Source: Dehalococcoidia bacterium
Lineage (GTDB): Bacteria > Chloroflexota > Dehalococcoidia > Dehalococcoidales > UBA1222
NCBI GenBank assembly: GCA_003597995.1
Contig: QZJY01000016.1
Coordinates: forward strand, 751 to 64,750
Reading direction: 5' to 3'
Length of the DNA: 64,000 nucleotides
Within the stretch, counting starts at the first letter, position 1; the number at the start of each line of letters is the position of its first letter. The translations under genes were made by a program, and so were the position numbers. The notes under the pieces are model-generated. The model ran no database searches and was not told where the DNA came from. It worked only from the letters and a program-made list of their open reading frames with translations. Shown here piece after piece: positions 55,358-56,632 of the stretch.

Positions 55358-55627
55358 CTAGCAGCACTCGCCGGAATCGAGGCTTTTGCCTTTGAGAGCG
55401 GCTTGAATCATGGCGGCGGCGCAGCCCACGCCGCTCTGCACGGCGATGGCATTGGTCGGGCAGTTGAGGGCGCAGGCGCCGCACTCCATGCAGGCCTCCT
55501 GATTGACGAGTTGTGCCTCTTTACCCTCGGCGAAGACGCCGTGCGGGCAGACCTCCCAGCACATGGCGCAGCCGATGCAGAGCTCGGGGACGTACTGTAG
55601 AGTATTGACTTTATACGAGTTGAACAC
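55358..55627 (-). CDS. hgcB: mercury methylation ferredoxin HgcB
   Basis: 89 aa with a GTG start and GAGGAG 7 nt upstream. It has two CX2CX2CX3CP motifs (CIGCAMCWEVCP and CMECGACALNCP), an internal GVGCA and a C-terminal vicinal ECC. Confidence 0.85.
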   Translation of the reverse strand: MFNSYKVNTLQYVPELCIGCAMCWEVCPHGVFAEGKEAQLVNQEACMECGACALNCPTNAIAVQSGVGCAAAMIQAALKGKSLDSGECC

Positions 55628-55639
55628 TTCGGGACTCCT

Positions 55640-56632
55640 CTAGAGGAACCTCGCGATGATATTCAGAATGATGCCCAGGATGAAAGAGACGGCCATGGGG
55701 CGGATATAGCTGCGCATCTCGGCCTTAACGCCGCTGCGCGAGGTGAAAGTACTCGACCCGGTGAAGTTGAGGGCAATGAAGGCCACCACCGTCGGCCAGA
55801 TGAGCATGTTGCTCGCTACATTCATGACCCTGTGAGTAGTCGAGATGTCTGCTTTCAGCCATAGCGTGTTCATCAGTACAACGGCGAGTGTCACCACCAG
55901 CCCCAGGCTCCAGCCCTTGGTACTGAAATCCTTGGTGGGCAGCCAGGGCAGCAGCAGGGGGAAAAGCACGGCTCCTCCTGCGATGGCAAGCACCGCCAGC
56001 AGCGACCCCGTCCAGCCGCCCCAGAAATAGAGGGCGACTGCCGCGATTACCAGGTACAGGAAGTATCCCAGCAGTTCCACGGGCGCCAGTATCAGGCGGT
56101 CGAGAATGCCGAAGCGCACCAGGCGCATCTCGGGGGTGGCTTTATGCGTCTTGAGGTACTCCGGCAGGTCGCGAGCCCGCACCGGGCCGTATTCCACCTT
56201 GAAGCCTGACTGTTTCTTGACTTTATGGGCTGCCACGCCCGGCGCTCCAAGCTGCGGCAGGATGACGGTGCGGTGCCTCACTACCCTCGCAAGCTCGGAG
56301 GTGTCTATGCGCTCCACCAGTTCCTCGGTGCCGAAGGTGTGCTTGCCGGCGGCGCACCAGACATTGATGCCGAAGGTGTTCAGCACGAGTATATAAGCGT
56401 CTATCCCTGTCAGAGATGTGCGCAGCGCGTCGAAGCTGAGCGTATAGTTGGCGCTGATAAAAACGGGGGAATCGGGCGTCGGATTGCCAATAGCGTAGAG
56501 CCCCGGAATTACTTTATGTTCGCCGCGCTTCCACCTCCAGCGCGCCTGGATATGGTCCCAGCGGTTTTTCCACGTGAGGAATGGGGAGGTGGGGAGGACG
56601 GGGATTTCGGCGGCAATATTGCTAACAGACAT
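55640..56632 (-). CDS. hgcA: mercury methylation corrinoid protein HgcA
   Basis: 330 aa. The cap-helix signature NVWCAAGK lies at residues 90-97 (nt 56342-56365, Cys93). About five TM segments fill the C-terminal half. Confidence 0.9.
   Translation of the reverse strand: MSVSNIAAEIPVLPTSPFLTWKNRWDHIQARWRWKRGEHKVIPGLYAIGNPTPDSPVFISANYTLSFDALRTSLTGIDAYILVLNTFGINVWCAAGKHTFGTEELVERIDTSELARVVRHRTVILPQLGAPGVAAHKVKKQSGFKVEYGPVRARDLPEYLKTHKATPEMRLVRFGILDRLILAPVELLGYFLYLVIAAVALYFWGGWTGSLLAVLAIAGGAVLFPLLLPWLPTKDFSTKGWSLGLVVTLAVVLMNTLWLKADISTTHRVMNVASNMLIWPTVVAFIALNFTGSSTFTSRSGVKAEMRSYIRPMAVSFILGIILNIIARFL

Follow-up and report, generated by a model that had tools for sequence, protein, structure and literature searches.

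Does the stretch of DNA analyzed here, 64,000 nt from a Dehalococcoidia bacterium of the order Dehalococcoidales (assembly GCA_003597995.1, contig QZJY01000016.1; the whole stretch is referred to below as the window), encode a genuine mercury methylation system, and from which signals and in which chromosomal setting would its genes be expressed? A preliminary description of the window had identified two adjacent genes, encoding a 330-aa protein and an 89-aa ferredoxin, as the mercury methylation pair hgcA-hgcB. The identification holds, although such systems are already known. The explanation that best accounts for the data as a whole, and which we hold to be very probable, is that the genes are intact, genuine hgcA and hgcB orthologs, carried on the chromosome of an uncultured Dehalococcoidales (Chloroflexota) bacterium, which would provide genetic capacity for Hg(II) methylation through the mechanism of strain ND132, from expression signals of their own. 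Every sequence determinant of the ND132-type mechanism is present and conserved, the activity itself being predicted from orthology. Feature coordinates are given in Table 1; labels of the type L001 to L046 denote the related loci used in the comparisons.

Identity of HgcA and HgcB

The paralogs were discriminated by means of the curated equivalog cut-offs of three competing NCBIfam models. In this profile search, which the preliminary description had proposed as a check on its assignment, HgcA and HgcB both scored above their cut-offs while the fused-type and corrinoid iron-sulfur protein (CFeSP) models stayed below theirs. Specifically, the 330-aa protein matched the HgcA_corrinoid model NF040863 at 420.5 bits (cut-off, 275; E = 4e-126) over profile positions 4 to 324 of 325, and the ferredoxin matched the HgcB_ferredoxin model NF040864 at 109.1 bits (cut-off, 99; E = 7e-32) over positions 5 to 93 of 93. 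The model for fused HgcAB-like proteins, NF043039, matched both open reading frames (ORFs), at 217.8 and 51.5 bits, each below its cut-off of 285. The CFeSP gamma-subunit model gave 70.2 bits against a cut-off of 306 and aligned only over profile positions 323 to 447 of 450.

The features expected of HgcA are found in the 330-aa protein, whose ATG start is preceded by an in-frame stop four codons upstream. Residues 90 to 97 read NVWCAAGK, one of the six accepted "high-stringency" cap-helix motifs (PMC10087281), in agreement with the pattern N(V/I)WC(A/S)(A/G/S)GK including its conserved cysteine. Cys93 is the sole cysteine of the protein. Across the alignment of 47 homologs, residues N90 to G96 do not vary, and conservation at K97 is 90% or higher. 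The preliminary description had reported both the motif and the identity of the Cys93 numbering with that of ND132, the latter in agreement with the literature (PMC7305189, PMC11588087, PMC10087281). It had also proposed a corrinoid-binding-like N-terminal half followed by about five transmembrane helices, and this too was borne out. The only Pfam domain detected was the CdhD-type corrinoid domain, at residues 41 to 156, and the C-terminal half contained five Kyte-Doolittle hydrophobic segments (residues ~179 to 206, 205 to 233, 240 to 263, 269 to 290, and 308 to 330). The AlphaFold2 (AF2) model placed helices at residues 176 to 230 (covering two of the hydrophobic segments), 236 to 259, 265 to 288, and 302 to 329. 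Hydrophobicity, the AF2 model, and a full-length alignment to 9a0b_A all point to the five C-terminal transmembrane helices of HgcA.

A phmmer search of PDB sequences with HgcA returned only CFeSP large-subunit chains (2h9a, 4c1n, and 4djd). In the alignment to 2h9a_A, which pairs HgcA residues 41 to 161 with CFeSP residues 320 to 440, Cys93 falls on Thr374, placing the motif in the cap-helix position as the preliminary description supposed. Parks et al. in 2013 are said to have identified Thr374 of CFeSP as the cap-helix residue beneath the corrinoid. The AF2 model, built from the alignment of 47 homologs, had a mean predicted local distance difference test score (pLDDT) of 83.8, with a Rossmann-like N-terminal domain and helices across residues 176 to 329. 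Its top Foldseek match was 9a0b_A (ND132 HgcAB; E, 2e-18; 38% identity over 330 columns), followed by CFeSP domains with root mean square deviations of 2.1 to 2.4 Å over ~135 columns. Neither search thus returned an experimental HgcA structure, 9a0b being a computed model published by Cooper et al. in 2020.

The product of hgcB contains Fer4 domains in Pfam and carries the cluster motif CX2CX2CX3CP twice, as CIGCAMCWEVCP at residues 17 to 28 and CMECGACALNCP at residues 46 to 57. Residues 46 to 51 read CMECGA, matching the C(M/I)ECGA motif of HgcB (PMC10087281, PMC7305189). Cys69 lies 13 residues past Cys56, the last cluster cysteine, and Cys88 and Cys89 are the final two residues. The junction between the genes reads CTC TAG AGGAG TCCCGAA GTG, leaving a gap of 12 nt from the TAG of hgcA to the GTG of hgcB. 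The GTG start is supported because relatives have an ATG (MFNSYK...) at the matching codon. The GAGGAG ribosome binding site, the 12-nt distance, both clusters, the extra cysteine, and the terminal cysteine pair had all been listed in the preliminary description and are all present; its conclusion that this is the HgcB pattern agrees with the NF040864 score and with a cysteine spacing like that of ND132.

The conserved first codon of hgcB encodes Ile, and not ATG, GTG, or TTG, in L013, L014, L015, and L020, so that gene callers truncate or miss hgcB there. The HgcB tail also differs among relatives, ending in ...GECC, ...SCDCS, or ...ECCDCS, with a 29-aa extension in L009 (7006-7362) and L021.

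In Pseudodesulfovibrio mercurii (Desulfovibrio desulfuricans) ND132, whose pair is the experimentally characterized one, hgcA and hgcB likewise lie next to each other and in this order. ND132 HgcA has Cys93 and five transmembrane helices, and ND132 HgcB has Cys73 plus Cys94/95 (PMC11588087, PMC7305189). The HgcA encoded in the window resembles its ND132 counterpart in the CFeSP-like corrinoid N-terminal domain, the NVWCAAGK motif, the cysteine at 93, and the five helices. The resemblance of HgcB extends to the lone cysteine 13 residues past the second cluster (position 69 here and 73 in ND132, with a 60-to-73 spacing) and to the terminal cysteine pair (88/89 and 94/95, respectively). The HgcA proteins are, however, only ~38% identical, and the window, unlike ND132, has no ArsR-like gene upstream of the pair and shows a stand-alone promoter of leaderless geometry. 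In ND132 the gene for an ArsR-like regulator is cotranscribed with hgcAB (10.1101/2022.10.17.512643), and 112 genomes have such a gene upstream of hgcAB (PMC7438021).

Relatives, chromosomal slot, and selection

The closest proteins, at 82 to 89% identity, come from metagenomes and from metagenome-assembled genomes (MAGs) titled uncultured Dehalococcoidales, and one NCBI relative (85% identity) already bears the name "mercury methylation corrinoid protein HgcA." The HgcA and HgcB proteins of Dehalococcoidales MAGs within this identity range (MGA3093938.1, GCA_049520695.1; CAZUXO01, CAYRSY01) are encoded in the same slot and with the same 12-nt junction. Relatives of this kind vary in whether they have the hicB module, in an oxidoreductase operon that some of them carry after hgcB, in the HgcB tail, and in the leaderless-type or leadered arrangement upstream of hgcA.

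A fixed chromosomal slot emerged when 40-odd loci were compared through their gene tables and by BLAST: rny-recX-recA is followed by a variable module, hgcA-hgcB, and folP-folK-PTPS-rplU-rpmA. In the window, L009, and L042 the module between recA and hgcA is a hicB pair; L013 to L015 have a 95-aa ORF in its place, L044 has an HATPase_c_3 pair, and L010 and L016 have nothing. The 95-aa ORF was considered as an ArsR-like regulator and rejected, since it has no Pfam match. On the other side of the pair, L009 (7672-12249) and L010 (7672-12235) carry a three- or four-gene Fer2/MoCoBD/FAD-binding operon (xanthine dehydrogenase/CoxSLM-like) after hgcB, and L002 has a 3.7-kb insert (~7040-10790) between hgcB and folP. 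The neighborhoods of the FolP relatives without hgcAB (L045 and L046) are rearranged, and the direction of hgcAB gain or loss is therefore not readable from them; a model in which hgcAB had simply been inserted between recA and folP, or lost from there, was accordingly rejected.

The ratio of nonsynonymous to synonymous substitution rates (dN/dS; Nei-Gojobori, five related loci, dS 0.5 to 2.1) was 0.10 to 0.15 for hgcA and 0.03 to 0.14 for hgcB, indicating that both genes are under purifying selection. Their G+C content at third codon positions (GC3; 0.77 for hgcA and 0.81 for hgcB) matches that of the neighboring housekeeping genes, and a signature of horizontal transfer was rejected, composition giving no evidence that hgcAB was recently transferred. 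The pair, which had been described as an accessory function, is variably present among relatives but does not lie on a mobile island; its GC3 is host-like and its chromosomal slot is fixed. The remainder of the window is made up of housekeeping genes, including pyrD, dnaK-dnaJ, polA, gltX, nadBC, gatA, and hisFI. No mer, ars, ArsR-like, or reductive dehalogenase (RDase) genes were present in the surrounding ORFs (~41.7 to 64 kb) or among the large ORFs scanned elsewhere in the window.

Expression of hgcAB and relationship to the folate genes

The gene hgcA is directly preceded by a promoter-like site, TTGACC-N17-TAAAAT, and the 6-nt space before the ATG makes a Shine-Dalgarno site impossible there. 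The pattern TTGAC-N17-19-TANAAT-N5-7-ATG has a single match in the window, that of hgcA, with 0 expected. Hexamers and both spacings of the arrangement TTGACC-N17-TAAAAT-N6-ATG are kept in L009, L013 to L015, and L037 at dS values of up to 2.1, with the intervening bases diverged, and the arrangement is conserved across four lineages; because L013 lies at a dS of ~2 from the window, neutrality is an unlikely explanation for it. Further relatives (L001, L002, L010, and L016 to L019) have TTGCxx-N17/18-TAGAAT/TAAAAT followed by a leader of ~30 nt with GAGG or GGAG. From these alignments we infer that the clade has two hgcA upstream architectures, of which the window represents the leaderless type. 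Transcription of hgcA would start from its own TTGACC-N17-TAAAAT promoter at or a few nucleotides from the ATG, giving a leaderless mRNA, and hgcB would be translated from GAGGAG, a site sharing bases with the stop codon of hgcA. A leaderless mRNA had been suggested in the preliminary description; the promoter geometry and its conservation strengthen the suggestion, which nevertheless keeps the standing of a prediction. The literature searched contained no mention of a leaderless hgcA.

The distance from hgcB to folP had been given as 208 bp, a figure counted from the longest-ORF start, TTG 55149. This TTG belongs to the -35 hexamer of a conserved folP promoter. The likely start is TTG 55101, which makes the spacer 256 nt long and which fits the public gene call for FolP (P0121; 280 aa). 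When the sequences upstream of folP from seven loci were aligned, cTTGCC, the 17-nt spacing, TAtACAAT, the GGAG site, and the TTG start were all conserved. In L003, L013, and L043, the hgcB stop lies ~20 to 30 nt before the -35 element of folP.

The spacer has a folding z-score of -2.9 and contains hairpins, as had been noted, but these are members of a dispersed family resembling repetitive extragenic palindromic (REP) elements and are not specific to hgc. A hairpin identical to one in the spacer, TCTCCCCTT-TCT-AAGGGGAGA, occurs at 42942-42962, and related CT/GA-rich palindromic hairpins are found at 2008-2063, 42344-42400, 42875-42995, 48713-48736, 50124-50302, and 55173-55305. The family pattern is matched 8 times in the window, where 0.3 matches would be expected, the hairpins being clustered between the picked ORFs in the manner of REP elements, and copies are also present in relatives L016, L044, and L046. 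The window and L016 have the spacer in common, at ~84% identity and with a compensatory C-G to T-A change in one hairpin, and the ~190 nt of REP-like hairpins constitute an insertion specific to the lineage of these two loci. Rfam at gathering thresholds detected only a tRNA in the whole window and no family in the spacer. A riboswitch or other known RNA in the spacer was rejected: a permissive scan yielded nothing above threshold, its best relevant match being a Moco riboswitch at 20.7 bits (gathering threshold, 36) antisense to folP. No intrinsic terminator with a T-tract was found in the spacer after hgcB.

A small endonuclease-fold gene similar to DUF559/restriction endonucleases (42401-42814, minus strand) has REP-like hairpin clusters on both sides.

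How the genes are transcribed could be construed differently at both ends of the pair. At the upstream end, hgcA might not be leaderless and might be read from another promoter-like site at 56709-56682, with an A/U-rich leader of ~45 nt lacking a Shine-Dalgarno site, a construction we find doubtful, though not far-fetched: the site is a second 10-of-12 promoter match, and the seven related loci named above use leaders of ~30 nt. Those leaders, however, have a GAGG/GGAG site where the window has none, and the proximal TTGACC-N17-TAAAAT-N6-ATG arrangement has been kept in four lineages despite divergence of the spacer and is unique in the window, with 0 matches expected by chance. At the downstream end, hgcAB and folP-folK-PTPS might form one operon linking HgcAB to folate/pterin supply, with methyltetrahydrofolate as the methyl source. 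The genes are adjacent on the same strand in the window and in L001, L003, L013 to L016, L043, and L044, in three of these loci hgcB ends only ~20 to 30 nt from the folP upstream region, and the spacer lacks a T-tract terminator. We nonetheless consider a single operon quite improbable: the -35, -10, Shine-Dalgarno, and TTG elements of folP are conserved in 7/7 loci compared; the ~190-nt hairpin insertion in the window and L016, the oxidoreductase operon in L009 and L010, and the 3.7-kb insert in L002 intervene after hgcB; the fol cluster is kept in FolP relatives without hgcAB; and the donor found in vitro is S-adenosylmethionine (SAM), not methyltetrahydrofolate (PMC11588087). With a promoter, Shine-Dalgarno site, and start of its own, folP does not require cotranscription with hgcB, and the transcriptional link implied in the preliminary description is unneeded. 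The downstream folP-folK-PTPS genes would then probably be a separate transcription unit behind their conserved promoter, and hgcAB would be expressed from the leaderless-type promoter.

Predicted mechanism and alternative roles

The steps of the mechanism are carried over from enzyme studies of ND132. HgcA would be anchored in the membrane by its five C-terminal helices, and its N-terminal CFeSP-like domain would bind the corrinoid, whose cobalt would have the thiolate of Cys93 for its lower axial ligand. HgcB, as a 2[4Fe-4S] ferredoxin, would donate the electrons that reduce cobalt to Co(I), which would take up a methyl group and, as methyl-Co(III), transfer it to Hg(II). The methyl donor to Co(I) was SAM in in vitro work of 2024 (PMC11588087), methyltetrahydrofolate having been assumed before. 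Cys69 and the C-terminal Cys88/Cys89 of HgcB would handle Hg(II) and CH3Hg+, in keeping with the view that HgcB cysteines shuttle Hg species (PMC7305189).

Could the 330-aa protein instead be a nonmethylating HgcA-like paralog, of the fused HgcAB-like type or related to CFeSP/AcsC? Its corrinoid-binding domain is homologous to that of CFeSP (Pfam CdhD; PDB 2h9a, 4c1n, and 4djd), and some database relatives still carry the name "carbon monoxide dehydrogenase." The homology is to the Rossmann-like corrinoid-binding domain of the CFeSP large subunit (AcsC/CdhE; 2H9A, 2YCL, 4C1N, and 4DJD), that is, only to its C-terminal domain (~320 to 440 of 2h9a), where Thr374 of CFeSP is replaced by Cys93; the five-helix C-terminal half of HgcA finds no membrane domain in CFeSP to align with. 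The other parts of CFeSP, an N-terminal [4Fe-4S] domain and a TIM barrel, would not fit into a protein of 330 aa. As to the fused proteins, of which Pyrococcus furiosus Q8U2U9 is an example and which are nonmethylating in culture, they resemble the pair in the cap-helix region and the membrane domain as well as in the ferredoxin motifs, but here the ferredoxin is encoded by a separate gene, a stop codon and 12 nt away. With the fused-type and CFeSP scores below their cut-offs and the HgcA score far above its own, a paralog of either type is scarcely credible.

A different matter is whether mercury is what the proteins are kept for. A 2026 preprint reports that heterologously expressed HgcAB dechlorinates CCl4, suggests that the native function is the dechlorination of halomethanes, and counts Dehalococcoidales among the main marine hgcAB hosts (10.64898/2026.04.26.720869). 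The native job of HgcAB here could then be another corrinoid reaction, for which reductive dechlorination of halomethanes is one candidate, and Hg methylation would be incidental to it. Purifying selection and a fixed slot among housekeeping genes suggest a routine cellular role, and the ORFs scanned hold no mercury/arsenic resistance genes or ArsR-like regulator. The support is, however, a single preprint that is not peer reviewed, and the window holds nothing bearing on halomethanes. We consider such a role unlikely, and it would be compatible with methylation capacity rather than replace it. A fuller scenario, to which we accord little probability, is that in an RDase-poor Dehalococcoidales clade hgcAB is no accessory trait passed on sporadically by transfer but has been kept vertically between recA and the folate genes under purifying selection, expressed from a constitutive leaderless promoter without an ArsR-like regulator, and selected for a non-Hg corrinoid reaction, e.g., halomethane dehalogenation.

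The explanation preferred here, genuine hgcAB orthologs with ND132-type methylation capacity and their own expression signals, has several observations to contend with. HgcB exceeds its cut-off by only 10 bits. In the cofactor-free AF2 model of HgcA, residues 85 to 101 are coil with a pLDDT of <50 at residues 92 to 96, so that the cap-helix geometry rests on the CFeSP sequence alignment and not on the model. The window shows no genes for making or taking up corrinoids. The second promoter-like site upstream of hgcA (TTGTCA-16-TATAGT, the one weighed above) would permit a leader of ~45 nt without a Shine-Dalgarno site. Finally, no Chloroflexota or Dehalococcoidia isolate has been assayed for Hg methylation (PMC4646819).

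Table 1. Coordinates of the hgcAB locus and of other features in the window
Feature	Coordinates	Strand	Remarks
hgcA, membrane-anchored corrinoid protein, 330 aa	55640..56632	-	ATG start at 56632, TAG stop
Cap-helix motif NVWCAAGK codons (residues 90-97)	56342..56365	-	Cys93 codon TGC at 56354-56356
HgcA C-terminal transmembrane domain, residues ~176-329	55646..56107	-	Five hydrophobic helices (Kyte-Doolittle and AF2)
hgcB, 2[4Fe-4S] ferredoxin, 89 aa	55358..55627	-	GTG start
GAGGAG Shine-Dalgarno site for hgcB	55635..55640	-	Overlaps hgcA stop codon; 7 nt before GTG
Promoter-like site TTGACC-N17-TAAAAT	56639..56667	-	-10 hexamer ends 6 nt before hgcA ATG
Hairpin-rich region, REP-like elements	55150..55357	-	Perfect stems at 55199-55232 (10 bp), 55239-55259 (9 bp), and 55273-55293 (9 bp)
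folP expression signals	55099..55149	-	-35 TTGCCT 55149-55144; -10 TACAAT 55126-55121; Shine-Dalgarno GAGGAGAGGG 55113-55104; TTG 55101-55099
folP	54259-55101	-	TIGR01496 DHPS, 275.8 bits
folK	53706-54269	-	TIGR01498, 127.2 bits
PTPS/QueD-family gene	53315-53725	-	PF01242 PTPS, 138.5 bits
Variable two-gene module divergent from hgcA	56753..57454	+	72-aa HicA-like ORF and hicB
72-aa ORF in toxin position upstream of hicB	56753-56971	+	No profile match
hicB, 140 aa	57032-57454	+	PF05534, 46.7 bits (cut-off, 21), E 3e-12, residues 76-114
Dcm-type C5 methylase	46425-47540	-	Restriction-modification island
DUF4928/type II restriction endonuclease	45518-46459	-	Restriction-modification island
Vsr mismatch endonuclease	45099-45560	-	Restriction-modification island

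Upstream hicB module

The preliminary description had placed the pair between a hicAB module and a folate operon. HicB is confirmed by its PF05534 match, but the supposed hicA, the 72-aa ORF, has no match in Pfam (E up to 5), NCBIfam, PADLOC, a phmmer search of the PDB, or a search with a 33-sequence profile. The AF2 model of its product (pLDDT, 85.6) has an alpha-beta3-alpha core with one additional helix in front of it at the N terminus. The highest TM-scores were obtained with HicA 6hpb_A (0.51/0.61) and with 6g26_E, a suggestive resemblance, but the E values of 2 to 4 are not significant. The ORF belongs to a family of ~139 clusters, all "hypothetical" and without Pfam assignment, whose named sources are only Chloroflexota MAGs and in which His39 is invariant. 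It may represent a divergent HicA family missed by current profiles.

Significance

hgcAB is the accepted genetic marker of microbial methylmercury production, and an intact, selected copy of it makes the Dehalococcoidales population sampled here a putative methylator, a status that bears on mercury risk assessment for the source sediment or water. The locus is a data point rather than a discovery, since Dehalococcoidales have already been reported to be major carriers of hgcAB and the HgcA annotation is already attached to close relatives. Three small points may be of use to specialists: part of the clade conserves a leaderless-type promoter, an ArsR-like regulator is lacking, and the recA/hgcAB/folP slot is fixed, with variable modules around it. 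The REP-like hairpin family is a further addition.

Other features of the window

A low-GC3 (0.35 to 0.42) island on the minus strand (45099-47540) encodes a type II restriction-modification system (Table 1) and was probably acquired horizontally. Three ORFs have no Pfam match at E values of up to 0.001, namely, those at 12292-13563 (minus strand; 423 aa), 4331-5125 (plus strand; 264 aa), and 41687-42358 (plus strand; 223 aa). Two PlsY-type (G3P_acyltransf) paralogs are encoded within the 64 kb, at 20640-21311 (minus strand) and 62901-63584 (plus strand). The window also encodes a heme catalase (29643-31091, minus strand) and a hemerythrin-domain protein (48148-48648, plus strand), although its lineage is usually held to be strictly anaerobic; the two genes hint that the putative methylator meets oxygen or peroxide in its habitat.

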